NCBI GenBank assembly: GCA_039189765.1
Contig: JBCCYL010000004.1
Span: 1 to 64,000 of the forward strand
DNA from: Cyanobacteria bacterium P01_F01_bin.150
GTDB lineage: Bacteria > Cyanobacteriota > Cyanobacteriia > CAKZMO01
Length of the DNA stretch: 64,000 nucleotides
Direction of reading: 5' to 3'
Made by a program: the position numbers and the translations under genes. This document shows, in pieces, positions 15,570-32,552 of the stretch; position 1 is the stretch's first letter; the number at the start of each line of letters is the position of its first letter. The notes under the pieces are model-generated. The model had not been told where the DNA came from, did no database searches, and saw only the letters and a list, made by a program, of their open reading frames with translations.

Positions 15570-18235
15570 GATCACTGCTGTCTTGGCTCTACGTTTTGAT
15601 GCTCCGCACCAGATGGCGATGGATGCCAGGCGGTCTGGCCTTTTTAATAATCCTTGGCTGCCTCAAAGTCGGGGCATTTCAATCTTCTGAGTATTTAGCG
15701 TTCAATACCCTAATTCAGCTTCGGGATTCTCAACCTTGGCACGATGATATTGTCGTTATTGAAATCGATGAGCCAACCCTCAAGGCTGTTGGAGAATTTC
15801 CCCTTTCCCGTCGTTATTATGCCCAAGTTCTGGACTTTTTGAGGCATGCTCAGTCTGGAGTAGTGGTACTCGGTGTGGTTTTTTCCGAGCCGAGTCCAGA
15901 TGATGACCGTCTGGCTCAAGCCATGCTTTATCATGGCCAAGTGGTATTAGCCCAAGCCTGGAGCCAGAATGGAAGACCCACTCTGCCCACTAAGGTACTG
16001 ATTGACAGCGCTATACATTCGGGTCATGTTCTTAACTATCCGGACAGCGATGGAATTACCCGTTCAATTCGCCCCTATATTCAAGGGGTTCCGGCTCTGG
16101 GAATTGCAGCTATTCAAGCCTACTCTTTAACCACGGATGTTGTTCCATTGCCAGAAGGGAAGCATCTTTTTTGGATCAACTGGCCAGATTCAAACAAGGA
16201 GCTGGAAAGATACTCGTTTCTGGATGTATTGCAGCGTAACGTTGAAGGCGATCGCTTTGAAAACAAACTGGTTGTCATCGGCTCCAGCATAGCTGGAGTT
16301 GATCCAATCGCGACTCCCTTTAACCAAGACCCCCCTGCCACCGGTATTGATTTGCAGGCCGCTGTTATTAGCAATCTTCTATATGGCAATCATCTCAGGG
16401 TTCTTTTCCCTCCATGTAAAATGCTGCTGCTGCTGATATGTGGTCCTCTTCTCAGCCTATATTTGAGTCGATGCAGTATTTGGGGGCGTTGGCTCTCAGG
16501 CGCGACTTTAGCCATAGGATGGTGGAGTCTGAGTTTTCTGTTACTAAAAGGACTAAATGTTTGGGTACCTTTGGTTTGGCCTGTTACTTTAATTGTGCTG
16601 AACGTTAGCTTTACAGAAATTAGCAGCCGCCTTAAATTCAGCGCTATTTTACAAGAAGAAGTGGAGCGATTGTGGCAAACGTACCGTCGTGATGTCCTAG
16701 TACAGGCCGCTGGCACAATAGCCCCGCCTGTTTCAAAAGAGCCTGGATTTAGAGATGGGGTATTGCTTGGTGATGCAAAGACATGGTTGCCCCAAAATAG
16801 CACTACTCCTCATTTAATAAAATGGATAGAGGAAAAGTGGATGACATCTCGTCCCAAAAGTTTTGCGGAGGGGACTCGGGTTGAATCCACTGCAATTTAT
16901 CGAACCCATCAGCTTACTGAGTTAGTGGAAATGTTTGGGCGATCACAGGCACTGCATGGAGCGATCGCCCGTAGTCTATCGATTGGCCTAGTGGCAGCCG
17001 ATTGGAATGGCCAGGTTTGGTTTTGTAACCCAGCTGCAACAGATCTGCTGGGGATATCCATTGGCCATTTATTGGCCAACACCCTTATTCCTCACTGGCT
17101 TAATCAAGGTACGTGGGAACAGTACCTGCGACATCTCCAGCAGGGACAGACTATTCGTTGGGAGATTCCTAGGTGCAGCCATTGGTTTGAAATTAGTTTG
17201 GAACCCTTATCTCAAGCATCTGATGTATTAAGTAGTCCCTCTGTGCACCAGAGAAAAAAACAGTTCCCGGCTACCCATACATTTGCTGGTTTATTGGACT
17301 CAGCCCATCAGAAATCACCAAATTATCCTAAACACGAACAGTTAGCCGGGGAATTAATTGGGCTACTGCTCATAGTGGAAAACATTACGACCTACAAACA
17401 GGTTGAAGAAGAAATGAGCAAAGCATTAGCCCAGGAGAAAGAATTTAACGAACTCAAATCCCGTTTTGTGTCGATGGTGTCCCATGAGTTACGAACGCCC
17501 CTAACTATTATTCAAACATCTCTTGAGATGTTGGAACGTCGTTATCGTAAAATCGCATCCCACTCTCCGCCTTCTGTAGAACCATCCGACTCAAATATCA
17601 AAAGCTATCCTGGGCATGCTTCTCAACAGTTAGTCAAATCAACTCATATTGAATTTAATAATGGTCAACAAAAATACTTTCAAAGGATCAACAATGCTGT
17701 GTTTGCCATGACCCAGCTCCTTGAAGATGTGCTCTTACTGGGCAGGGTGGAAGCTAAGAAGCTAGAGTTCAATCCCCAGTATCTTGATTGTGCACAATTG
17801 TGTTACATGATTGTAGAGGAAATGCAGGTCCAGCCCCTGGGATACCCTCGAATTGTCTTTAAGGCTCAAGGAGATATTCGGCGACACTACGTTGATGCTG
17901 ATTTATTAAAAATGATCCTAGGTAATTTATTGTCGAATGCCATCAAATATTCTGCGGATCATACCTTTATCTATGTTGATGTGGACTGTCGTTCTGACTC
18001 AATCGTGCTTCAAGTTGAGGATCGGGGCATTGGGATTCCTTCTGACACTCAACAGCAGCTATTTAAAGAATTTCACCGTGCAACCAATGTTGGCAGTGTT
18101 CCTGGGACAGGACTTGGGCTGTCTATCGTAAAGCAGTGCGTCGATTTGCATCAGGGAAAAATTGTTGTTGAGAGTGCAGTGAATGTGGGATCTACATTTA
18201 TCATCCATTTGCCATCCCATCCCCATGCTCAATAA
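15566..18235 (+). CDS. CHASE2-domain sensor histidine kinase
   Basis: IVVIEIDE...FP, DSDGITR CHASE2 motifs, three TM helices, PAS-like region, SHELRTPL H-box, GTGLGL. Confidence 0.9.
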   Translation: MRSLLSWLYVLMLRTRWRWMPGGLAFLIILGCLKVGAFQSSEYLAFNTLIQLRDSQPWHDDIVVIEIDEPTLKAVGEFPLSRRYYAQVLDFLRHAQSGVVVLGVVFSEPSPDDDRLAQAMLYHGQVVLAQAWSQNGRPTLPTKVLIDSAIHSGHVLNYPDSDGITRSIRPYIQGVPALGIAAIQAYSLTTDVVPLPEGKHLFWINWPDSNKELERYSFLDVLQRNVEGDRFENKLVVIGSSIAGVDPIATPFNQDPPATGIDLQAAVISNLLYGNHLRVLFPPCKMLLLLICGPLLSLYLSRCSIWGRWLSGATLAIGWWSLSFLLLKGLNVWVPLVWPVTLIVLNVSFTEISSRLKFSAILQEEVERLWQTYRRDVLVQAAGTIAPPVSKEPGFRDGVLLGDAKTWLPQNSTTPHLIKWIEEKWMTSRPKSFAEGTRVESTAIYRTHQLTELVEMFGRSQALHGAIARSLSIGLVAADWNGQVWFCNPAATDLLGISIGHLLANTLIPHWLNQGTWEQYLRHLQQGQTIRWEIPRCSHWFEISLEPLSQASDVLSSPSVHQRKKQFPATHTFAGLLDSAHQKSPNYPKHEQLAGELIGLLLIVENITTYKQVEEEMSKALAQEKEFNELKSRFVSMVSHELRTPLTIIQTSLEMLERRYRKIASHSPPSVEPSDSNIKSYPGHASQQLVKSTHIEFNNGQQKYFQRINNAVFAMTQLLEDVLLLGRVEAKKLEFNPQYLDCAQLCYMIVEEMQVQPLGYPRIVFKAQGDIRRHYVDADLLKMILGNLLSNAIKYSADHTFIYVDVDCRSDSIVLQVEDRGIGIPSDTQQQLFKEFHRATNVGSVPGTGLGLSIVKQCVDLHQGKIVVESAVNVGSTFIIHLPSHPHAQ

Positions 18236-21860: not shown

Positions 21861-22424
21861 ATGCAATCATCCATATCGTCTCTCAAGCCATTATCATCCC
21901 AGCCAGTTCCTGCTATTTTGCAGAAAAAGGTCGTGGTTTTTTCCTGCACCTATCTGCCCGTGGCACGAATCAACATTAAACGGGCGATCGCCCTGCTCCT
22001 GACTGGTCGAGCCGAATCCCTTGATATGGGCAACGGCAAAGGGTGGAACGTACGGTCTCCAAATTTCGTCCTCCATGTGCCGGAATATATTCGTCTAACC
22101 ACCAGCGATCCAAAACGGAAATGGAAGGTCCCCCCAGTGAACCGACGGGAAGTGTTAAGGCGAGATGCCCACACCTGCCAATACTGCGGCAGTAAGCGAA
22201 AGCTCACCCTTGACCACGTCCTTCCCCGATCTCGGGGTGGTACCCATACCTGGGATAACGTTGTCACTGCTTGTGAGCCGTGTAACTCGTTCAAAAGCGA
22301 TCGCACCCCCAAGGAAGCGGGCATGGTGCTGAAGACAAAAGCGAAAGCTCCCATTCACCCAGCGATCGCCTTTGCTGAGGAATTCTGGAAACACCAAGAC
22401 CAGAGTGCCTTATTTGAAACTTAA
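21861..22424 (+). CDS. HNH endonuclease (McrA-like)
   Basis: RD-HTCQYCG...[27 protein letters not shown]; RBS GGAGG. Confidence 0.95.
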   Translation: [187 protein letters not shown]

Positions 22425-22893: not shown

Positions 22894-23147
22894 ATAAATC
22901 ATGAGATAGAGAGAAATATAGATTAGCTGGCAGAGCCTATCTCTGCCAGCACTATTGCTGTTGTTTTCAGATGGATGTACAGATAAAAATGTAATTCTTG
23001 TAGGGACACCTCTATATTTATCTAAGGCCAATTGTTTTTCTCTCTCTACTGCTTATATATATTGAGCAGATTCAGGCTAATTTAGAGTGAAATAGAAATA
23101 GGGCAGTTGCCTAAACCCTTTTCAGCAAAGCATTTACGGTACTCTTC

Positions 23148-23220
23148 AAAAAAAAATCAAAAAAAATTGTAGTACCCCCTTGACAACCATGTAATACGAT
23201 ATGTATTATTAATGTAATAC
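23148..23220 (+). promoter_or_regulatory. tRNA-array promoter with four repressor-like boxes
   Basis: A-tract UP element, TTGACA (23180-85), TATTAT (23204-09); TGTAGTAC 23168, TGTAATAC 23190, TGTATTAT 23202, TGTAATAC 23213. Confidence 0.8.
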
Positions 23221-23371
23221 GAAAGCGAGGCAAACAAAACAAGCGACTAAACGCTAAATCGCCCAGCTCGTTCTTTGAAACGCTCGTTATTTAACACTCA
23301 CTTGCTGAAAACTTACTGAAAGCATTTGAGTAAATCCCATAACCGCGTTCAACAGCATTGATGACTCAACT

Positions 23372-23390
23372 GAACCTTGAAAACTGAATA
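23372..23390 (+). promoter_or_regulatory. rrn-type boxA antitermination motif
   Basis: GAACCTTGAAAACTGAATA matches the boxA of cyanobacterial rRNA spacers. Confidence 0.7.
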
Positions 23391-23677
23391 TTTTCCATCC
23401 AATGTTTTGATTGTATTGATGAGAGCCCCTAACGAGTTGTGTTGGCTTCGCCAACTACAACTCCTTCAAAATCAGAGAAACACGAGGTGTCTCCGAGGAG
23501 AGGTGCATGAGTGGGGTGGGCGATCGCGAATTCCTGACGTTGGCGATCGCGCCAGAACACTAGCTATCAACTAGTGTTGCTGCCTACCCATTACCTTTTC
23601 CAAGAAACACCCTGTGTTTCATTCATTCTTGGCGTAGTAGTCGGCACAATCGAATACTACGTCGAGATTTCTTTCCT

Positions 23678-23755
23678 GGGGATGTAGCTCAGCCGGTTTA
23701 GAGCACCTGTCTGTCGAACAGGACGTCGCGGGTTCGAATCCCGTCATCCTCGCCA
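23678..23755 (+). tRNA. trnD: tRNA-Asp(GTC)
   Basis: Canonical cloverleaf, CCTGT-CT GTC GA-ACAGG, encoded CCA. Confidence 0.95.
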
Positions 23756-23816
23756 TTTATGTCCCATAGAAACGTCTGAGATGATGGCATTGCCGTTATC
23801 TCAGGCGAATACTTAT

Positions 23817-23890
23817 AGTCTCGTGGACGAATAGATAAGTCGCTTTGGTTCTCAGCCAGAGAGAAGCGGGTGCAACTCCCGTCGGGACTT
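23817..23890 (+). tRNA. trnE: tRNA-Glu(CTC), atypical
   Basis: Acceptor AGTCTCG/CGGGACT; loop TT CTC AG; T loop TGCAACT; D loop has AG instead of GG. Confidence 0.75.
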
Positions 23891-23893
23891 TAA

Positions 23894-23968
23894 GTCCAGG
23901 TAGCCAAGTGGAAAGGCGTTGGTCTGCAAAACTAAAAATCATGGGTTCGATTCCCATCCTGGACTCCA
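23894..23968 (+). tRNA. trnC: tRNA-Cys(GCA)
   Basis: GTCCAGG/CCTGGAC, U73, CT GCA AA, CCA. Confidence 0.93.
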
Positions 23969-24030
23969 AATTTTCAACTCTCAGATCCCAGGGTTCTCAA
24001 AGAACCCTGGGATCTCAAACCACAATCTGA

Positions 24031-24105
24031 CGGAGTGTAGCTCAACGGTAGAGCACTAGGCTCATAACCTAGCACGTGCGGGTTCGACTCCCGCCACTCC
24101 CACCA
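24031..24105 (+). tRNA. trnM: tRNA-Met(CAT) with C1:C72 mismatch
   Basis: CTAGG-CT CAT AA-CCTAG; CCA; the 1:72 mismatch is initiator-like but the three G-C anticodon-stem pairs are incomplete. Confidence 0.88.
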
Positions 24106-24152
24106 ACTGTGATGACATACGAAGTCTGTACTCATATGTTTGCAGTTTGTTT

Positions 24153-24226
24153 GGGCGGGTAGCTCAACTGGCTAGAGCAGCGGTCTCCAAAACCGCAGGT
24201 TGCAGGTTCGACCCCTGTCCCGCTCG
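24153..24226 (+). tRNA. trnW: tRNA-Trp(CCA)
   Basis: GCGGT-CT CCA AA-ACCGC; G73. Confidence 0.92.
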
Positions 24227-24301
24227 TGAGACACAGCAAGTCTCTCCCTTAAGACAGTGGTGGATGTCCTCCACATCCACCGCTTTACTTCTCAAAACCT
24301 T

Positions 24302-24379
24302 GGTGCCGTAGGCAAATTTGGTAAAGCCACATGACTTTCAATCATGTGTTTGCGGGTTCGAGTCCCGTCGGCACTTCCA
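24302..24379 (+). tRNA. trnE: tRNA-Glu(TTC)
   Basis: CATGA-CT TTC AA-TCATG; CCA. Confidence 0.9.
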
Positions 24380-24423
24380 GTTTTTCACCCCCTCTAACTC
24401 CCCCTTGGCAAGGGGGAGGACCT

Positions 24424-24506
24424 GGGTCGGCCCGCCTATTGGAGTGAGGCAACGGTCTGTAAAGCCGCCGCGTAACGCGTTGCAGGTTCAACCCCTGCCC
24501 GACCCA
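24424..24506 (+). tRNA. trnY: tRNA-Tyr(GTA)
   Basis: GGGTCGG/CCGACCC, CT GTA AA, variable arm CGCG-TAA-CGCG; C at position 8. Confidence 0.85.
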
Positions 24507-24596
24507 TAGCCCCGCGATCGCCACAGGATCCCCGGCTTTTCTCTCTCAATCCGGGGATCTACCGCTCAAGCGATATTTCGATTATTTCAACGACCT

Positions 24597-24687
24597 GGAG
24601 AGGTCGCCATTGGCAAAGCAAGCTGCCTGCTAAGCAGTCGTGGGTCTAAACGGTCCACTGTGGGTTCGACTCCCACCCTCTCCGCCA
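24597..24687 (+). tRNA. trnS: tRNA-Ser(GCT), aberrant D arm
   Basis: GGAGAGG/CCTCTCC G CCA, GCTGC-CT GCT AA-GCAGT, long variable arm, poorly paired D arm. Confidence 0.85.
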
Positions 24688-24732
24688 GAATCTTAGTTTT
24701 TTGGGGCGATCGCATAAGCAGTCCAATAGTCT

Positions 24733-24809
24733 GAGGGCGTGGTGTAAATGGATAACACGCCAGGTTGCGAACCTGGAGAGTAGGGGTTCAAGTCCCTTCG
24801 TCCTCGCCA
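24733..24809 (+). tRNA. trnR: tRNA-Arg(GCG)
   Basis: CCAGG-TT GCG AA-CCTGG; GAGGGCG/CGTCCTC G CCA. Confidence 0.88.
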
Positions 24810-24838
24810 AATACATAACATTTCTGTAAGTCATTCAT

Positions 24839-24923
24839 GGAGGTTGTCCGGCATGGACGAGGAAAGCGTCTTGAAAACGCCTGCGGCTACAAACCGTCAA
24901 GGGTTCGATTCCCTTAGCCTCCG
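24839..24923 (+). tRNA. trnS: tRNA-Ser(TGA)
   Basis: GGAGGTT/AGCCTCC G, CT TGA AA, long variable arm. Confidence 0.85.
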
Positions 24924-24972
24924 CTTTTCCCATGTAGGGTGGGCATCGCCCACCACCACCATATCCAAATCT

Positions 24973-25044
24973 GGGGACGTAGCTGAGATGGATTAGCGTC
25001 AGGTTGAAGCCCTGAAGAGGTAGGTTCAATACCTACCGTTCCCA
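24973..25044 (+). tRNA. trnF: tRNA-Phe(GAA)
   Basis: TCAGG-TT GAA GC-CCTGA; GGGGACG/CGTTCCC A. Confidence 0.88.
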
Positions 25045-25106
25045 TCCTCTGTATTGGTTAAGCATTATTGCTTAAGAACAGAGGGTTAACCAATACGGAG
25101 CATTAA

Positions 25107-25182
25107 TGCCTCATAGCTCAACTGGCAGAGCGAGCGGCTGTTAACCGCGAGGTTGTAGGTTCGAGTCCTACTGGGGCAGCCA
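25107..25182 (+). tRNA. trnN: tRNA-Asn(GTT)
   Basis: CT GTT AA loop, TGCCTCA/TGGGGCA G CCA. Confidence 0.92.
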
Positions 25183-25274
25183 ATTTTACCCCCTCAATCC
25201 TAATCCGATTCCCTCCCCTTGCTTTTGGCATTAGCCTGCCCGGAGGGCATAGGGGAAGGCCAGGGTGGGGTCAT

Positions 25275-25350
25275 TGCCGAGTGGACGAATTAGCAAGTCG
25301 CCTGACTCTGAATCAGGAGGTTGTAGGTGCGAATCCTACCTCGGCATCCA
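25275..25350 (+). tRNA. trnQ: tRNA-Gln(CTG) copy 1
   Basis: CCTGA-CT CTG AA-TCAGG; T loop TGCGAAT; CCA. Confidence 0.88.
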
Positions 25351-25363
25351 ACAATTAAGTTAA

Positions 25364-25436
25364 TCCCCTGTGGTGTAACTGGTAACACGTCCGATTTTGG
25401 CTCGGAAGAGTCTAGGTTCGAGACCTAGCGGGGGAG
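25364..25436 (+). tRNA. trnQ: tRNA-Gln(TTG)
   Basis: TCCGA-TT TTG GC-TCGGA; U1-A72, G73. Confidence 0.88.
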
Positions 25437-25484
25437 TTGGGGAAATTTGATTATGCCTGGGTCAATCACGTTTCTCCTTTTCAT

Positions 25485-25562
25485 GCTCCTGTAGCCCAAC
25501 TGGCAGAGGCGGCTGTCTTAGAAGCAGTCCATGTGTGGGTTCAAATCCCACCAGGAGTACCA
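25485..25562 (+). tRNA. trnL: tRNA-Leu(TAG), short variable region
   Basis: CT TAG AA loop; A73 CCA; no long variable arm. Confidence 0.88.
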
Positions 25563-25615
25563 AATTTGCGTCCGGGTCCCTCCCTTTAGCAAGGAGAGGG
25601 CTAGGATGAGGTCAT

Positions 25616-25691
25616 TGCCGAGTGGACGAATTAGCAAGTCGCCTGACTCTGAATCAGGAGGTTGTAGGTGCAAATCCTACCTCGGCATCCA
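25616..25691 (+). tRNA. trnQ: tRNA-Gln(CTG) copy 2
   Basis: One substitution relative to 25275-25350. Confidence 0.88.
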
Positions 25692-25751
25692 AACATTTCC
25701 TGAGGTTATCCGATCACTTTGCGCTCAGATCTCCTCCAAAAAAGATTTCAT

Positions 25752-25822
25752 TGCCTTCTGGTGTAATGGCAGCATCTTGCACTTTGAATGCGATGGTCCA
25801 GGTTCAAGTCCTGGGAGGGCAG
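25752..25822 (+). tRNA. trnQ: tRNA-Gln(TTG), second and distinct gene
   Basis: TTGCA-CT TTG AA-TGCGA; TGCCTTC/GAGGGCA G. Confidence 0.85.
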
Positions 25823-25880
25823 TCGGGGGGAGCAGGATATAGCCTGGGTCAAATTTATCCTTAACCTCCTGTTTTTTCAT

Positions 25881-25958
25881 ACTCCTGTAGCCCAATTGGC
25901 AGAGGCGGCTGTCTCAGAAGCAGTCCACGTGTGGGTTCAAATCCCACCAGGAGTACCA
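25881..25958 (+). tRNA. trnL: tRNA-Leu(CAG), short variable region
   Basis: CT CAG AA; near-identical to Leu(TAG); CCA. Confidence 0.88.
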
Positions 25959-25967
25959 ATTTTTTAA

Positions 25968-26045
25968 GCTCCTGTAGCCCAACTGGTAGAGGCAACTGTC
26001 TTAAAAACAGTTCATGTGTGGGTTCGAATCCCATCAGGAGTACCA
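25968..26045 (+). tRNA. trnL: tRNA-Leu(TAA), short variable region, intronless
   Basis: ACTGT-CT TAA AA-ACAGT; CCA. Confidence 0.88.
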
Positions 26046-26050
26046 TCTAT

Positions 26051-26125
<75 letters not shown>

Positions 26126-26129
26126 CTTT

Positions 26130-26207
26130 GCTCCTGTAGCCCAATTGGCAGAGGCGGCTGTCTCAAAAACAGTCTATGTGTGGGTTCAAATCCCACCAGG
26201 AGTACCA
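26130..26207 (+). tRNA. trnL: tRNA-Leu(CAA), short variable region
   Basis: CT CAA AA; CCA. Confidence 0.88.
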
Positions 26208-26211
26208 GCAC

Positions 26212-26287
26212 ACTCCCGTGGCGGAACGGCAGACGCACCAGACCGAGGATCTGGGTTTTGTGGGTTCGAATCCCACCGGGAGTACCA
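26212..26287 (+). tRNA. trnL: tRNA-Leu(GAG), short variable region, C33
   Basis: CCAGA-CC GAG GA-TCTGG; ACTCCCG/CGGGAGT A CCA. Confidence 0.85.
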
Positions 26288-26289
26288 AT

Positions 26290-26365
26290 GGGTCGCTAGC
26301 TCAATTGGCAGAGCATCCGGCTTTTAACCGGAGGGTTCAGGGTTCGATGCCCTGGCGACCCACCA
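26290..26365 (+). tRNA. trnK: tRNA-Lys(TTT)
   Basis: Canonical GGGTCGC..., CT TTT AA, CCA. Confidence 0.95.
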
Positions 26366-26369
26366 AATC

Positions 26370-26470
26370 GATTTTAGATTGATGATTTTAGATTTTGGAT
26401 TAGCACGTTCGTGCAACCTCCCAACGGGAATCACCCATCTTCCAAAATCCAAAATCTAAAATCCAAAATT
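26370..26470. repeat. inverted heptamer tandem repeats (STRR-like, GATTTT(A/G) / (T/C)AAAATC)
   Basis: GATTTTAGATT...GATTTTAGATTTTGGATT facing CCAAAATCCAAAATCTAAAATCCAAAAT, forming a long hairpin. Confidence 0.75.
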
Positions 26471-26475
26471 CAATC

Positions 26476-26547
26476 GGGCTGTTAGCTAAGTGGTAAAGCA
26501 GCCGCCTCTTAAGCGGAAGAGCATGGGTTCAACTCCCATACAGCCCA
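26476..26547 (+). tRNA. trnK: tRNA-Lys(CTT)
   Basis: GGGCTGT/ACAGCCC A; CT CTT AA. Confidence 0.9.
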
Positions 26548-26548
26548 T

Positions 26549-26627
26549 TGCGGGGATGGAGCAACAGTTTGGCTCGACGGTCTCATAAGCCGTAAATCGG
26601 TGAGTGCAATTCTCACCCCCGCGTCCA
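26549..26627 (+). tRNA. tRNA-(f)Met(CAT)-like, atypical
   Basis: TGCGGGG/CCCCGCG, ACGGT-CT CAT AA-GCCGT, T loop TGCAATT, extra nucleotide before the D stem, CCA. Confidence 0.7.
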
Positions 26628-26630
26628 ACT

Positions 26631-26704
26631 GCGAATGTGATGTAACGGTAGCATGTGAGGCTTCCAACCTCTTCGTGCAGGTTCAAATCCTGTCATTCGC
26701 TCCA
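26631..26704 (+). tRNA. trnG: tRNA-Gly(TCC)
   Basis: GCGAATG/CATTCGC T CCA; CT TCC AA. Confidence 0.9.
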
Positions 26705-26708
26705 AATT

Positions 26709-26783
<75 letters not shown>

Positions 26784-26785
26784 GC

Positions 26786-26857
26786 GCGGATGTGGTGTAA
26801 GTGGAAACATCAAAGACTGCCAAGCTTTAGTTGCGAGTTCGACCCTCGTCATCCGCT
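26786..26857 (+). tRNA. trnG: tRNA-Gly(GCC)
   Basis: GCGGATG/CATCCGC T; CT GCC AA. Confidence 0.88.
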
Positions 26858-26953
26858 TTGTTAGCTTTAGAAGCTAGTATCCTAGCCAAGACGCCAGATG
26901 CAATGCAAATTCCGCCTTCTGCCTTTTGCTTTCTACCCTCTGCCTTGCTTCAA

Positions 26954-27054
26954 AGTCCCGTAGCTCAACGGTGGAGCACTTGTCTTACAAACAAGGGGTT
27001 GTGGGTATTCCCTATCGGGAACGCTTGCGCGAACAAATCCCACCGGGACCACCA
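26954..27054 (+). tRNA. trnV: tRNA-Val(TAC) interrupted by a 26-nt T-loop insertion (27008-27033)
   Basis: CTTGT-CT TAC AA-ACAAG; T stem GTGGG/CCCAC encloses the insert; A1:C72 mismatch; CCA. Confidence 0.8.
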
Positions 27055-27057
27055 TTT

Positions 27058-27134
27058 GGGAGTGTAGCTCAATGGACTAGAGCACCGATCTTCTAAATCG
27101 GCTGTTGTAGGTTCGAATCCTACCACTCCTGCCA
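27058..27134 (+). tRNA. trnR: tRNA-Arg(TCT)
   Basis: CCGAT-CT TCT AA-ATCGG; CCA. Confidence 0.93.
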
Positions 27135-27160
27135 TCTCGCACAAAACATATAGCCAACAT

Positions 27161-27234
27161 GGGCCTGTAGCTTAACTGGGAAAGCGTCTGTCTTGCAAAC
27201 AGAAAGATGTCGGTTCGATTCCGACCAGTGTCCA
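27161..27234 (+). tRNA. trnA: tRNA-Ala(TGC), bulged acceptor stem
   Basis: TCTGT-CT TGC AA-ACAGA; G3-U70; one extra nucleotide in the 3' acceptor strand. Confidence 0.78.
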
Positions 27235-27293
27235 CTTGCCGGAGGGGCGATCGCACCCCACCCAATCGCCCTCTGGCTCTTCATCATACTTGT

Positions 27294-27392
27294 GGGAGTG
27301 TCGCCTAATGGATTGGGCACCAGTCTTCGAAACTGGTCTGTGTGGGTAACTCCTAACGGAGACGCTTGCGCGAACGATTCCTACCACTCCTG
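27294..27392 (+). tRNA. trnR: tRNA-Arg(TCG) interrupted by a 26-nt T-loop insertion (27349-27374)
   Basis: CCAGT-CT TCG AA-ACTGG; T stem GTGGG/CCTAC encloses the insert. Confidence 0.8.
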
Positions 27393-27400
27393 TCAAATTC

Positions 27401-27472
27401 GGGACCATAGCTCAACTGGAAGAGCACCTGCCTTGCAAGCGGGAGGTAGGGGTTCGATTCCCCTTGGCTCCA
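27401..27472 (+). tRNA. trnA: tRNA-Ala(TGC), second gene
   Basis: CT TGC AA; G3-U70, A73; A4:C69 mismatch. Confidence 0.87.
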
Positions 27473-27474
27473 CT

Positions 27475-27551
27475 GTGACGGAAACCGAAGTGTTCGAGGT
27501 GCTGGTCTGTGAAACCAGTTTTAGCGAGTTAGAGTCTCGTCCGTCACCCCA
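27475..27551 (+). tRNA. trnH: tRNA-His(GTG), atypical, no encoded G-1
   Basis: GTGACGG/CCGTCAC C CCA; CTGGT-CT GTG AA-ACCAG; T loop TTAGAGT. Confidence 0.72.
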
Positions 27552-27571
27552 AGTTCTCTCACTCCATATAT

Positions 27572-27680
27572 GGAAGGTGCCGCCAATGGTTGGCAATCGG
27601 TCTCGAAATCCGAGGGATAGCATCGCTATCGGGGTTTCTCCTATCAGAGACGCTTACGCGAACAATTCCTCCACCTTCCG
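27572..27680 (+). tRNA. trnS: tRNA-Ser(CGA) interrupted by a 26-nt T-loop insertion (27637-27662)
   Basis: GGAAGGT/ACCTTCC G; CT CGA AA; long variable arm GATAGC-ATC-GCTATC. Confidence 0.78.
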
Positions 27681-27692
27681 CTCCAAAAACAT

Positions 27693-27770
27693 GTTGGCCG
27701 AATCCAAAGTGGACGCGGAACTGGTTTGTGACACCAGTTGTAGCGGGTTCAAGTCCCGTCGGTCAACCCA
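27693..27770 (+). tRNA. trnH: tRNA-His(GTG) with G-1:C73
   Basis: G-TTGGCCG/CGGTCAA-C CCA; CTGGT-TT GTG AC-ACCAG. Confidence 0.82.
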
Positions 27771-27775
27771 TTTCT

Positions 27776-27889
27776 GGAAGGTGCCGCTAATGGTTGGCAA
27801 TCGGTTTGGAACACCGAGGGATGGCATGCTGCTATCGAGGTTTCTCCTATCGGAGACGCTGACGCGAACGATTCCTCCTCCTTCCGCCA
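27776..27889 (+). tRNA. trnS: tRNA-Ser(GGA) interrupted by a 26-nt T-loop insertion (27843-27868)
   Basis: TCGGT-TT GGA AC-ACCGA; long variable arm; G73 CCA. Confidence 0.78.
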
Positions 27890-28184
27890 GTATTAATTGC
27901 ATTACCAACATTCTTCCAAAACTATGAATACCTCAGCCCCAGGCACGAAGCAAGACAATGCCACTCGACTAAACCAACCGATGTTTAGCAAGCAAGCTGC
28001 CCGAAATTATAGAGTGCTATTGCCAGCACTACCTCGATATTTTGGTCGTCTTCTTCAAAATGATGATCCCATTAACCCAGTTTCTGAAAAAGACTATTAC
28101 ATGGTTCGTCGATTCATGTAATACCCGTACATTGGCTAGCTTTGTTTAGCGATCGCCCCATCATAAATAAAGCTAGTCATTCAT

Positions 28185-28256
28185 CCACCAGAGGCCGAAA
28201 AGCGAGGCACCGTGCTGATAACGCGGCGATAGCAGGGGCAGTACCTGCCTGGTGGA
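28185..28256 (+). tRNA. trnI: tRNA-Ile(GAT), highly divergent
   Basis: CCACCAG/CTGGTGG A; GCC..GGC D stem; CCGTG-CT GAT AA-CGCGG; T arm GCAGG-GGCAGTA-CCTGC. Confidence 0.68.
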
Positions 28257-28329
28257 CTTTGGAGATTTGGTCGTGTTGAAACTATAACGGACAAATAACG
28301 ATCGCCCATTAGTTTATTGGAGGACACCC

Positions 28330-28782
28330 ATGACCATTTACTTTTATAGCAACCGTGAAAAGCCCTATGGATGCTTTTCAAACTTTTCAAGTCATGGATT
28401 TGAATTAGATGGTCAGTGGTGGCCAACAAGTGAGCACTATTTTCAAGCCCAGAAGTTTATTGAAACGGCACCGTATTGGGCCAAGAAAATCCAAGAGGCT
28501 AAAGCTCCTAAAATTGCTGCCACGATGGGGCGCGATCGCCGCTACCCTCTCCGCACTGATTGGGAAGACGTAAAGGACGACATTATGAGTAATGCCGTTC
28601 TTCAAAAATTCACTACCCATGAGGATATTCGCTCCATCCTCTTATCCACCAGAGATAAGCACATAGTCGAAAATGCGCCCGGAGACTACTACTGGGGCTG
28701 TGGTAAAGACGGCAGCGGCAAAAACAAGCTGGGCCAGATTTTAGTGGCCGTTCGTGCCCAGCTTAGAGAACAATCACCGTAA
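28330..28782 (+). CDS. NADAR (YbiA-like) family protein
   Basis: YGCFSNFS, WPTSEHYFQAQKF, R-DWE-VKDDIM, DYYWGCG-DGSGKNKLG; RBS GGAGG. Confidence 0.95.
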   Translation: MTIYFYSNREKPYGCFSNFSSHGFELDGQWWPTSEHYFQAQKFIETAPYWAKKIQEAKAPKIAATMGRDRRYPLRTDWEDVKDDIMSNAVLQKFTTHEDIRSILLSTRDKHIVENAPGDYYWGCGKDGSGKNKLGQILVAVRAQLREQSP

Positions 28783-28795
28783 TTCTAAATACGCC

Positions 28796-29551
28796 ATGAG
28801 TGAACATCGGCTCGACGAAATATTAATTGAGCGCCCCCGCAGCGGGTGGCGCAAGAAAACGTCTCGCAATACAAAATTCTGGAGACAGCTTACGGAGGAA
28901 GCTAGCACCGATGGGTTATTAAGACCGTATCGAATTAAGACTCGCGATCGCACCAAGTATCTCTCTGATAATCTAGGACCGCTACGAGGTTTTTTACAAT
29001 CCAGGGTGGGCCAGCAGTGGGATGAGGTGTACAGCGAACTATCTCAGCGGCTCGATCGCAATACCGTATCGGGGCAACATGTGATTCAACACCTTTGGCT
29101 GGAGGTCTATCGTTATGTCGAAATTATCGATGGCGTAGTCTACTCCAAAGCTGGGGCAGATGGCTGGTATGGTAGCCGGGAATTGGGGCGATGGCGTAGA
29201 GATTTTTATGTTCATCCTCAAACGGGAGTGCTGTGTGTTGTCAATCGCAAGCCCCGCCGAGCCAAACCTAAGCCTGACAAGGATGTGATTAAAATCAACG
29301 ATCGCTACCACTATCGCAAAATTAATGGGATTTGGTACGAAATTGAACTCCAGGATATTCCCCGCTTTCGATCGGTGCGGGATGTGGTGCTGAAGGTAAC
29401 GGTGAGTCCTACTATGAGCGATCGCACCCGACATCTTATTTGCCACACTTATTGGCAATTTGGAAAAGACCAATATGCAGCCCGTAAGCGTCAATGTAAT
29501 AAAAAGGAGTTGAAGCATATCTCCAAACAAATCAACACTCAACAATCTTAA
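28796..29551 (+). CDS. basic (Arg/Lys-rich) hypothetical protein
   Basis: Long ORF from ATG 28796; IERPR, TKYLSDNLGPL...VGQQWD-VYSEL, FYVHP-TG, KINGIWYE motifs; function not recognised. Confidence 0.8.
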   Translation: MSEHRLDEILIERPRSGWRKKTSRNTKFWRQLTEEASTDGLLRPYRIKTRDRTKYLSDNLGPLRGFLQSRVGQQWDEVYSELSQRLDRNTVSGQHVIQHLWLEVYRYVEIIDGVVYSKAGADGWYGSRELGRWRRDFYVHPQTGVLCVVNRKPRRAKPKPDKDVIKINDRYHYRKINGIWYEIELQDIPRFRSVRDVVLKVTVSPTMSDRTRHLICHTYWQFGKDQYAARKRQCNKKELKHISKQINTQQS

Positions 29552-29582
29552 TGATATGTACTTGTACTCGCTAAAAATTCAA

Positions 29583-29843
29583 GGGGAGGTGGCCGAAAAT
29601 GGAAAGGCACCGTAAAAACGTTGGAAAACGGTTCCCAAAAGGACAGCCGGGTTTGTCAAAGTAGGGTTTATAGCTGCATTGTGGCGTTCCCCGAAAACCG
29701 CAAACGAGCAGCGGGTTGCAGAGGCACTGAACGGAATCACCATCCAAGATGGGGGCAGTTCCCATTTGCCTACGGGTAGTAAGGAAGCGCGTTTCCTGAA
29801 AGCTGCTGACGGCTGCATGCGAGTTCGCTTCCCGTCCTCTCCA
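29583..29843 (+). ncRNA. tRNA-framed ~260-nt structured RNA (tRNA ends enclosing a group-I-intron-like insert)
   Basis: GGGGAGG/CCTCTCC-A acceptor, GCC-GAAAATGGAAA-GGC D arm, CCGT/ACGG stem, GCGAG-TTCGCTT-CCCGT T arm. Confidence 0.65.
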
Positions 29844-29908
29844 TTTATCTAAACGTTATGGTGTGTGCATCGCGCACACCATAGCCCCAACACTCTTGGG
29901 AGAGTTAT

Positions 29909-30006
29909 GGCGTTGGGGCGTTGGGGCGTTGGAAGGTTTCGAGTTTTGAATTAGGTTTTCTGCCTTCTGCTTTTATTTCTGCCTTCTGTCTTCTGCCTTC
30001 TGCCTT
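29909..30006. repeat. short tandem repeats (GGCGTTGG x3; TTCTGCC-type heptamers)
   Basis: Directly visible; the same TTCTGCC heptamers occur at 26910-26946. Confidence 0.75.
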
Positions 30007-30147
30007 TCTTATCATTTGACACGTGCTATCCAGATGATTGCTATGGATACGGTGTGATTGTGCTTTCCTTTGACAAGATTTAACAGCTATTGGTGTGCTC
30101 CGCATCTCAATGGTCTGCCTTAAAATTTGGGCCATACTCCAAAAATA

Positions 30148-31332
30148 TTAGCCGAAAACATCAGCCGGATCAGCGATCAGGACTTTGCGAACGGCGATCG
30201 CCCCCGACACCAGGCACATAATCACCGTGGCAATAAAAATATTGAGCGCCCGTTCGGTGGTCATTTGCAGCAGTAGTCCAGTAGCCTCCGCTGCTGAATC
30301 ATACAATAGATAGCTAACGATAACGCTGGGAATAAAACCAATTAGGGCCAGAACCATCGCCTCTTGGATCACAATCATTAGCAAATGGCCGTTAGTATAG
30401 CCGATGGCCTTAAGCGTGGCGTATTCGGCCCAGTGATCCGCCACATCGGTGTAGAGAATTTGATAGACCAGAATAATCCCCACCACAAAACTCATGGAGG
30501 TAAGCAGGCTAAAGACAAAGCCAATATTGGTGTTCTCTTCCCAATAGATTCGCTCTCGCAGGGCAAATTCATCCTTGGAGAAAATGGCCACATCGTCGGG
30601 GAGGCGATCGCGCAGTACGTCCACCAGGCCACTGACATCACTTCCCGGTGCCACCGTCAATAATCCAATATCCACCGTACTCAGCGTACGACTATCTTTT
30701 TCAGGCCCCAAGCGAGCAAAATAGCGAATAAAATTCTGATCGCTCATTACGATATTGCCGTTACCAGCTGCAAAATCAGTGCCCAGGCTGAAGTTGCCAA
30801 CGACATTAATTTGTTGCTCCATTAGCTCGGTGGTAATCCCTGCCTCGGTGGGACCGACTTCGGAACGCGATCGCCCATCGATCACCGTGGTCCAAGGCAG
30901 TTTAAGCGTATCCGTCTGGTTTACAATACCTGGCAGTGGCAGGACCGGATCATCTGGATTAAAGGCAATTACCCGTAGAGGAATCACCTTTTTACTATCA
31001 GGATTTTTCCAGTTGCCCACTGCAATATAGATGGGATAGGCATCCTCTACCCCATCAAATGCCTGGGCTTGATAAAGGCGACGCCGGGCGAATTGCTCCG
31101 GCACAAACATATTTTCCTTGATTTTATTAATCACCACAATATCGCCATTTAGCCGCTGGAGCAGTTGAATTTGGCTATCGTATAGGGCATTTTTAAACCC
31201 CAGGAAAATAAACATCAGCAATGCGGCAAAGGCAACTCCTCCAATCGCTGTCAGCAGGTGACGCTTGTCGTGGGTCAGGTTAAACCACGGCAGTACTGTG
31301 TAACGAGGCGGCAGTCGTAAAGGCAAGGGCAT
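30148..31332 (-). CDS. devC: DevC-type ABC exporter permease (FtsX/MacB-like)
   Basis: W-NLTHDK, VYQILYTDV, EYATLKAIGY, ADPADVF; ATG at 31332 is coupled to the upstream TAA. Confidence 0.9.
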   Translation of the reverse strand: MPLPLRLPPRYTVLPWFNLTHDKRHLLTAIGGVAFAALLMFIFLGFKNALYDSQIQLLQRLNGDIVVINKIKENMFVPEQFARRRLYQAQAFDGVEDAYPIYIAVGNWKNPDSKKVIPLRVIAFNPDDPVLPLPGIVNQTDTLKLPWTTVIDGRSRSEVGPTEAGITTELMEQQINVVGNFSLGTDFAAGNGNIVMSDQNFIRYFARLGPEKDSRTLSTVDIGLLTVAPGSDVSGLVDVLRDRLPDDVAIFSKDEFALRERIYWEENTNIGFVFSLLTSMSFVVGIILVYQILYTDVADHWAEYATLKAIGYTNGHLLMIVIQEAMVLALIGFIPSVIVSYLLYDSAAEATGLLLQMTTERALNIFIATVIMCLVSGAIAVRKVLIADPADVFG

Positions 31333-32552
31333 TAGGAAAACACCTCCGCTGGATCTGCATTCACCGCTTTTTGCACCGACACTAACCCGGAAAGACAACA
31401 CATCATTACCGTTAAAATAAGCACAAAGACAGCTCGCTGCAAAGTCATCCCCACGGGCAAGGTGCCAGCAGTGGCTTTTATGGTCAAGTCATATAGTCCC
31501 ATGGCCAGGGCAAACCCTGGAATATAGCCCAATATCGCCAGAATCAGGGCCTCTTGTAATACGATGCCAAATAGAAACCAGCGGCCATACCCCATGGCTT
31601 TGAGGGTGGAGTATTCGATCATATGGTTAGAAATATCAGTGTAGAGCACCTGATAGACAATCACTACCCCCACAATCACGGCGACACCGACCCCTAAACT
31701 AAAAATAAATCCGATGGAGGTGTTGGTCAGCCAATAGACACGTTCCCGTTCCGTAAGCTGTGCTTGGGTCATGACCGCCACATCTTCTGGCAGAATTTTG
31801 TCTAGCATATCTACCATTTGCTGCGGGTCTACTCCCTCTTCGATTTGAATTAGGCCAAAATCAATGGTACTCAGCGGTCGGGGATCAAAATAGCGACGGT
31901 AGTTCTGGTCACTCATAATTACGGTTCCGTCTGCCGCAAATCCTCCCCCCAAGCTGTATTGACCGACAATCTCCACACTGCGTCGATCCAGCTCTGTTTG
32001 GATACCGATATCCTGGGGGCCAAATTCGGGACGAGACTGGCGATCAAACGCCACCGTATCAGGTTGCTGGAGGCGTCTGAGAGTCTCTGGGTCACTTAAT
32101 TCTGGTAGTTTAAAGACCGGGTCATTCAGATTAAAGCCATAGCTAAACATCGCTCGGTTAACGCGAGTTTCAGGGTTTTTCCACTGAACGTAGCCCACAT
32201 ATAAGGGCATGACCCGTTTGACCCCTTTAATGCCAGCGGCTTGATAGATGCGTTCAATGGGGAACGGTTCGGAAGTGGTGATTTCTAAGGTCTTAGGGGA
32301 GTATAAAAAAATATCCGCGTTCATCTGCTCATAAATCTGACTAGCAGTGAGGGATAACGCACCCATAAATCCCAAATTCATAAAAACCAGCAGAACCGCA
32401 AACACCACCCCTGCGATCGCTGCCACCAGCCGAGTTTTCTCGTGTACTAAATTTAACCACGCCAATGGTGTTTTCATTGGCCCAGTGAGTCCCCATGAGA
32501 CCTTTTGTCGTCCCATCAAAGGAACCTTTAGACGCCCTAGCTTAATGTTCAC
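31332..32552 (-). CDS. devC: DevC-type ABC exporter permease
   Basis: TPLAWLNLVHEKTRL, YQVLYTDIS, EYSTLKAMGY, ADPAEVF. Confidence 0.9.
   Translation of the reverse strand: MNIKLGRLKVPLMGRQKVSWGLTGPMKTPLAWLNLVHEKTRLVAAIAGVVFAVLLVFMNLGFMGALSLTASQIYEQMNADIFLYSPKTLEITTSEPFPIERIYQAAGIKGVKRVMPLYVGYVQWKNPETRVNRAMFSYGFNLNDPVFKLPELSDPETLRRLQQPDTVAFDRQSRPEFGPQDIGIQTELDRRSVEIVGQYSLGGGFAADGTVIMSDQNYRRYFDPRPLSTIDFGLIQIEEGVDPQQMVDMLDKILPEDVAVMTQAQLTERERVYWLTNTSIGFIFSLGVGVAVIVGVVIVYQVLYTDISNHMIEYSTLKAMGYGRWFLFGIVLQEALILAILGYIPGFALAMGLYDLTIKATAGTLPVGMTLQRAVFVLILTVMMCCLSGLVSVQKAVNADPAEVFS

Follow-up and report, generated by a model that had tools for sequence, protein, structure and literature searches.

Four tRNA genes in the window, by which we mean the whole 64,000-nucleotide stretch of contig JBCCYL010000004.1 of Cyanobacteria bacterium P01_F01_bin.150 analysed here, are interrupted in the T loop by a two-hairpin element of 26 nt that also overwrites base 55. 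Such insertions into tRNA genes reach dozens of other cyanobacteria, at the same position of the loop. The reading that we regard as probable, with a likelihood of roughly 70%, is that the inserts are copies of a non-autonomous miniature mobile element of the small dispersed repeat (SDR) type, and that they were written into the DNA and not removed afterwards. The element is not specific to tRNA genes and behaves like SDR4, SDR5 and SDR6, a likeness drawn from the described features of these repeats and not from their consensus sequences.

The tRNA array and its surroundings

The window belongs to a HIP1-rich genome of 10.6 Mb that is 99% complete. The host locus consists of a long, dense array of tRNA genes with an HNH gene upstream, the two characters by which L-arrays are recognised.

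21861..22424, + strand: HNH endonuclease gene upstream of the array (Pfam HNH_5, E = 4.6e-15)
23678..28257, + strand: long tRNA array (L-array, trn-operon type); 31 genes called by ARAGORN, 33 intact T arms and 4 interrupted

The HNH gene upstream is a reported feature of L-arrays, which are described as normally silent, induced by translational stress and co-regulated with rtcB, and of whose tRNAs 23 of 26 were charged (PMC8421152). The best plasmid match of the array was the trn operon of pCC7120delta. The four interrupted genes are located near the 3' end of the array.

Several other observations were made at this locus. Upstream of the array, direct repeats at 23190-23225 resemble the trn-operon promoter repeats of PMC8421152. 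A Gln(CTG)-Gln(TTG)-Leu block occurs twice in the array (25275-25562 and 25616-25958) with different Leu anticodons (TAG, CAG). At 28184-28257 there is a cloverleaf RNA with the anticodon GAT and a non-canonical T loop, called neither by ARAGORN nor by Rfam, and a cloverleaf with this anticodon is kept at the 3' end of many L-arrays, including that of PCC 7120. From the gene count it is probably the operonic tRNA-Ile(GAU) that was reported as charged (PMC8421152). Directly behind the array follow a NADAR-domain gene (28330-28782) and a gene without a Pfam family (28796-29551), which by eye resembles the gene behind the array of locus L001. A candidate structured RNA of about 250 nt with tRNA-like 5' and 3' ends was seen at 29583-29830; it is found with 87% identity in G497, a genome of the same genus, and partially in locus L097, and has neither an Rfam match nor an ARAGORN call. 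Elsewhere in the window's genome, ARAGORN with introns allowed reported two Ser(CGA)-labelled tRNA-like genes with long inserts in the anticodon loop (G000:C198:11181 and 11331).

Four interrupted tRNA genes

26954..27054, + strand: interrupted tRNA-Val(TAC) gene (Rfam RF00005, 49 bits; no ARAGORN call)
27007..27033, + strand: element in tRNA-Val(TAC), the replaced base 55 (A at 27007) plus 26 nt
27294..27395, + strand: interrupted tRNA-Arg(TCG) gene (Rfam, 37 bits; cloverleaf after in-silico removal of the insert)
27348..27374, + strand: element in tRNA-Arg(TCG), position 55 = A (27348) plus 26 nt
27572..27682, + strand: interrupted tRNA-Ser(CGA) gene (cloverleaf after in-silico removal)
27636..27662, + strand: element in tRNA-Ser(CGA), position 55 = T plus 26 nt; hairpin 1 with one C.A mismatch
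27776..27889, + strand: interrupted tRNA-Ser(GGA) gene (cloverleaf after in-silico removal)
27842..27868, + strand: element in tRNA-Ser(GGA), position 55 = T plus 26 nt

None of the four genes was called by ARAGORN, and Rfam recognised three of them with low scores. A preliminary description of this DNA had placed the same 26-nt element in the four genes; all four are at the positions it gave, and the element pattern had four matches with no mismatch in the window and none in 100 shuffles. Its statement that the window holds no other copy was also correct, and the genome has 12 more outside tRNA genes. In the Val gene the element is made up of hairpin 1 (5 bp), hairpin 2 (3 bp) and AA, followed by C56. 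Hairpin 1 had been described as covarying, which it does, but it is imperfect in two of the window copies, with the C.A mismatch in Ser(CGA) and an A.A at the base in Arg. The four copies are 2 to 6 edits apart and not clearly closer to one another than to other copies.

The Val(TAC) gene is the only Val gene in the array, as had been noted before. Intact housekeeping genes for Val(TAC), Ser(CGA) and Ser(GGA), together with four for Arg, are present elsewhere in the same genome. The A1.C72 mismatch of the interrupted Val gene is not a sign of decay, since the intact ortholog in G497 has it too. The Arg(TCG) ortholog in G497 carries a similar element at the same site.

The junctions and the overwriting of base 55

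Removal of the inserts in silico gave cloverleaves with T loops of 7 nt in all four genes; positions 54-55 then read TT in the two Ser genes and TA in the other two. The earlier claim that removal restores the T loop therefore stands as to loop length but not as to the loops of Val and Arg. The empty Val(TAC) allele of G497 has T55 (TT) and one other base different, and not one of 796 intact array tRNAs had TA at these positions (728 TT, 58 TG). Base 55 was A in 123 of 161 sense copies in T loops, and in 39 of the 74 where the search seed did not fix it. TA is thus not ancestral, base 55 having been overwritten, and excision cannot restore the ancestral loop of Val or Arg. A more fitting description of the event is that an element of 27 nt has taken the place of base 55. 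Inspection by eye found the same T-to-A change in nested copies and where a copy lies antisense in Glu(CTC). That no intact loop has TA suggests either that the element seldom leaves the DNA cleanly or that selection removes the product of such excision.

In every case the element has entered immediately 5' of a C, in a context resembling G-W-W^C-R, and it does so on both strands. Its 3' join is an exact A^C throughout, a constancy that the searches required, and at the 5' junction the element's own first base takes the place of the target base. Comparison of the window copies with the empty G497 allele showed no target duplication, in agreement with the preliminary description. Any proposal for the enzyme that moves SDRs must reproduce this rule, that is, the exact A^C join on the 3' side and the base replacement 5' of the site. 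In the tRNA T loops many insertions can be compared with a known empty allele, and the overwritten target base hints at the way in which elements of this small size move.

A T-loop hotspot in many cyanobacteria

No other site is used nearly as much as the T arms of L-array tRNA genes, which several sequence families have entered repeatedly and independently. Among 186 distinct tRNA-embedded copies, a count biased by the search seeds, 161 were found in the sense orientation at 55/56 and 8 in antisense at 57/58 of Phe-type genes; the remaining 15 antisense and 2 sense copies are located elsewhere, including within anticodons. Anticodons of Val, Tyr, Phe and Arg genes contain copies, as do stems. 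The antisense copies recur in the array Phe gene, the bottom strand of which offers GGAT^CG. The 161 sense copies are 19-28 nt long, carry 38 anticodon labels and are all in L-array tRNAs. They stem from 40 GTDB genomes in 11 families and from 26 metagenome loci that partly overlap with those genomes. Interrupted genes occur in cultured strains, namely Calothrix sp. NIES-4101 (five on plasmid 2), C. brevissima NIES-22 and Tolypothrix PCC 7910, and Kovacikia (Leptolyngbyales) also carries T-loop copies.

A search with the element's tail plus the 3' half of the T loop had given 192 matches in 72 of 401 genomes of the class, from which the 30 loci listed and 60 fetched regions were examined, joined by further loci from other searches. 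Dropping alternative parses and non-hairpin inserts reduced 166 raw candidates to 111. The final 186, out of 207, are de-duplicated and score at least 97, with the window's own Ser(CGA) copy left out. As a seed-free check, 10 plasmid arrays were fetched from 17 cyanobacterial matches, chosen by likeness to the window; four carried inserts, namely 10 sense copies in T loops and 1 antisense copy. A sequence-blind search for T-loop insertions revealed at least three sequence families sharing one anatomy: a hairpin, 0-2 A, a second hairpin and W-A, then C56, with loops usually T-N-C. The pair types CG, TA and GC occurred at four positions of hairpin 1 in the 207 copies, a result that is partly circular, as detection needed three of the four pairs. 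Among 9 sequences, 3 of 7 pairs had changes on both sides.

The element occupies 4 of the 37 T arms of the array in the window's own genome, compared with at most 12 of about 5,200 non-ORF G-W-W-C-R-A sites (crude ORF mask). Outside long ORFs there are about 385 exact GGTT^CRA sites, but not one of the 12 other copies occupies such a site. Since T arms are filled far above motif sites, being in a T arm or an array counts for much in addition to the motif. Across arrays that were sampled for carrying the element, 10.5% of the T arms were filled. An SDR-type element aimed at tRNA T loops, as proposed earlier, is thus right in so far as the preference is strong, but copies also occur in heptamer repeats, HIP1-like GAT^CG sites, other repeats, the element's own hairpin loops and, in antisense, tRNA genes.

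In locus L135 (G497:C617), near 17000, a duplicated and decayed 3' half of a tRNA-Gly(TCC) gene with the element was seen right behind the intact copy.

In another scenario, homing from T loop to T loop, the G-T and C-R-A flanks that T arms have in common would let filled arms convert empty ones; the hotspot and an imported base 55 would both follow from it. Base 55 tracks the element type and not the tRNA, being A in 28 of 28 copies of the 21-nt CCGCT type and mixed in the TCTCC type (in part a seed bias), many arrays have several copies of one type, and in genome G421 all four exact motif matches (4/4) are in the array. Families are, however, mixed within single arrays, base replacement is found at sites other than T loops, and the distances among the window copies do not support recent copying in this genome, which makes homing a highly improbable explanation.

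Copies outside tRNA genes

With variation in loop length allowed, the window's own genome contained 16 strict copies, 12 of them outside tRNA genes and mostly 24-25 nt long, in heptamer repeats, GAT^CG sites and other repeats. A 26-nt Hamming search had returned the four copies plus one chance-like match; this count was misleading, because most other copies, at 24-25 nt, escaped it. A stricter grammar gave 20 matches in this genome against 1 and 1 in the reversed and complemented controls. A broader grammar, run without a control of its own, gave 44 matches, 17 of them sibling elements at GCGAT^CG, the SDR5 position in HIP1, where the window's sequence family occurs now and then. Empty paralogous sites were found for 2 of the 44 non-tRNA copies. 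A loose structure grammar (57 matches, against 69 in the reversed control) was kept out of the counts.

The exact 14-base tail motif was present in 87 of 201 genomes of the class, with up to 80 copies in one genome. Copies are also nested in the element's own hairpin loops (e.g. L005, L081, L115 and L360). The 48 motif matches in viral contigs did not restore a tRNA on removal. In loci L367-L378 the element was often seen inside another repeat with a T-loop-like loop (TT^CGACTCC), sometimes with the same T-to-A change.

Together with the target, the ends of the element make up a short inverted repeat (G-T-W ... W-A-C), which could point to inserts made de novo by local template switching and never mobile. 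Many genomes contain identical 21- to 26-mers, which occupy sites unrelated to one another and occur on either strand; nor are the hairpins duplicates of the sequence beside them. This explanation is therefore barely conceivable.

Intron, tolerated insert or disabling insertion

The preliminary description had also considered a tiny intron. The version weighed here, a T-loop intron removed at the RNA level by a stress nuclease and RtcB to leave a mature tRNA with A55 in many cases, appears very unlikely. It would account for the same position in 161 genes and for the strong sense bias there, but not for 23 antisense copies or for the copies in anticodons, stems and non-tRNA DNA, and its product would be the A55 loop that occurs in none of the 796 intact genes. 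When compared with housekeeping tRNAs, none of the 186 interrupted genes scored above 0.81 (control median 0.97, minimum 0.81), and no case was seen in housekeeping-like tRNAs. EndA (PF01974) had no match in the 99% complete genome while four archaeal controls were positive, a group I core had no match in 23000-32000 at E up to 1, and the 26-nt insert ends in A. The predicted folds give a multibranch loop and are devoid of a bulge-helix-bulge. A hammerhead ribozyme was considered on account of the G-U-H before the site and the GAA after hairpin 2, and was ruled out by the absence of the hammerhead core, CUGANGA. Mismatches in hairpin 1 were nearly even (10 G.T and 11 C.A), a symmetry that gives no support for an RNA intermediate or for a folding strand.

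The interrupted genes also show more decay. Anchored on T arms, 33 of 137 interrupted genes scored below 100 against 129 of 1165 intact ones, about a twofold difference, and 76% of the interrupted genes still scored 100 or more. Of the substitutions, 52 of 454 (11.5%) were disruptive in interrupted genes against 269 of 3245 (8.3%) in intact ones, among kin that are not independent, and the interrupted Gly(GCC) gene of G497 has lost one anticodon base. Plain SDR-inactivated pseudogenes, the other outcome envisaged at first, would agree with the copies at unrelated sites, here and elsewhere, but the decay is not wholesale. Of 169 interrupted genes, 147 had an intact gene as nearest relative, which is what recent and repeated events should produce. 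Of the 17 nearest-neighbour pairs in which both genes were interrupted, 6 had clearly different elements, 1 had identical ones and 10 shared the same stem. Two ortholog pairs with the same or a similar element, Arg-TCG (G000/G497) and Thr-TGT (L246/L234), had compensatory stem changes, which fit selection after insertion if the insertion was inherited.

A mobile origin could also be combined with an insert that is tolerated. The tRNA would then be processed and charged with an enlarged T loop, or would still act as processing punctuation or a nuclease decoy, and the hotspot would partly reflect survival, T-loop insertions being purged less. The mildness of the decay and the compensatory changes speak for this, as does the predicted local fold, in which the T stem is kept with both hairpins on top. 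The GAT array tRNA with its odd T loop is a probable precedent; as it is probably charged, A55 alone is no proof of lost function. On the other side stand the doubled decay rate, the lack of cases in housekeeping-like tRNAs and the predicted full-length folds of Val and Arg, in which the insert pairs with the variable region and the T stem. The elbow of T loop and D loop is, moreover, needed by RNase P and the ribosome. We hold a tolerated insert to be unlikely. Taken together, the sequence evidence indicates that the element most likely disables the tRNA rather than acts as an intron.

Proposed course of events

The movement of the SDR-type element may be pictured as follows. A host enzyme acting in trans would nick next to C56, at a G-W-W^C-R site exposed in a single-stranded hairpin. 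The element would enter by copying that proceeds from the 3' side, and closure of the 5' join on the upstream G-T would cost base 55. The enlarged T loop would then disable or impair the tRNA, which may be tolerated because the array tRNAs duplicate housekeeping tRNAs.

The genome contains two RtcB genes, five reverse-transcriptase matches and nine Y1 matches, and no link of the element to any of these genes was found. A copy is near one of the nine Y1 loci, 460 nt upstream, inside a heptamer hairpin that is also present at a locus without a Y1 match. Ahead of a RAYT-like Y1 gene at G000:C3:127750-128620 stands a palindrome of which an array spacer (window 23985-24016) has another copy.

A more speculative course, which we consider quite unlikely, would lead through RNA: array tRNAs would be cut at U55^C56 under translational stress and trimmed by one base, whereupon RtcB, induced along with the array, would join a small two-hairpin RNA into the cut, and this RNA would then be copied back to DNA. 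The same chemistry could remove the element, and interrupted genes would yield charged A55 tRNA. If true, these would be the smallest bacterial tRNA introns, and the movement of SDRs would be explained.

The hotspot is a route by which stress-induced tRNA arrays erode. The insertions also hide tRNA genes from annotation, ARAGORN having missed all four here. As cultured strains carry interrupted genes, a direct distinction between intron, tolerated insert and pseudogene is possible.

Comparison with known systems

Non-canonical bulge-helix-bulge introns of archaeal tRNAs are likewise short inserts at a fixed T-loop position. The inserts described here differ from them by the lack of such a fold in the predictions, the lack of EndA, the antisense and non-tRNA copies and the altered base 55. 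Group I introns of bacterial tRNA and tmRNA genes also interrupt tRNA-like genes, those of tmRNA in the T stem-loop (bioRxiv 10.1101/2020.01.27.920355), whereas the present element has 26 nt, no catalytic core and an A, not a G, at its end.

Nor does the element have the terminal inverted repeats of 15-30 bp and the target duplication of MITEs, being 26 nt long in all and showing no duplication against the empty allele. Insertion of IS200/IS605 elements is precise. The REP/RAYT and IS200/IS605 systems resemble the element as small hairpin elements with no target duplication and a plausible single-strand route (PMC6006769, PMC3733652), but the element has no GTAG or CGTC tag, is near a Y1 gene at one of nine loci only, and replaces a target base.

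The host array is like the L-arrays or trn operons in that an HNH gene is followed by more than 30 tRNA genes, which are in similar order and redundant with housekeeping genes (PMC8421152, PMC10272220). The word 'insertion' appears once in the main text of PMC8421152, on array rearrangements, and the portion covered of one supplement makes no mention of insertion, SDR or interrupt. The PCC 7120 array differs in carrying no such insert, by which inserts were dismissed as the cause of its three unexpressed operon genes.

The SDR4, SDR5 and SDR6 repeats of Nostoc were reportedly described by Elhai et al. in 2008 as small and dispersed, with a covarying two-hairpin fold, and as located in heptamer repeats and nested in themselves. 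SDRs are 21-27 nt in size. The element is like them in size (26 nt here, 19-28 nt overall), dispersal, covarying two-hairpin fold and insertion into heptamer repeats and into itself. SDR5 inserts between the third and fourth base of HIP1 (PMC4390886), and its function was still called unknown in 2026 (PMC13756078). Sibling elements share this HIP1 position (17 of 44), whereas the four window copies are in T loops. The parts of the literature reached by our search contained no account of SDR insertions in L-array T loops or of base replacement, and Elhai et al. 2008, the 2012 Anabaena tRNA cluster paper or supplementary figures could mention them; the hotspot at 55/56 in L-array tRNAs and the replacement of base 55 look new. 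A passage of PMC5861425 states that no SDR was found outside Nostocaceae. The T-loop copies are distributed over 11 families and extend beyond the Nostocales, as in Kovacikia of the Leptolyngbyales, and this spread widens the range of SDRs and is no argument against kinship with them.
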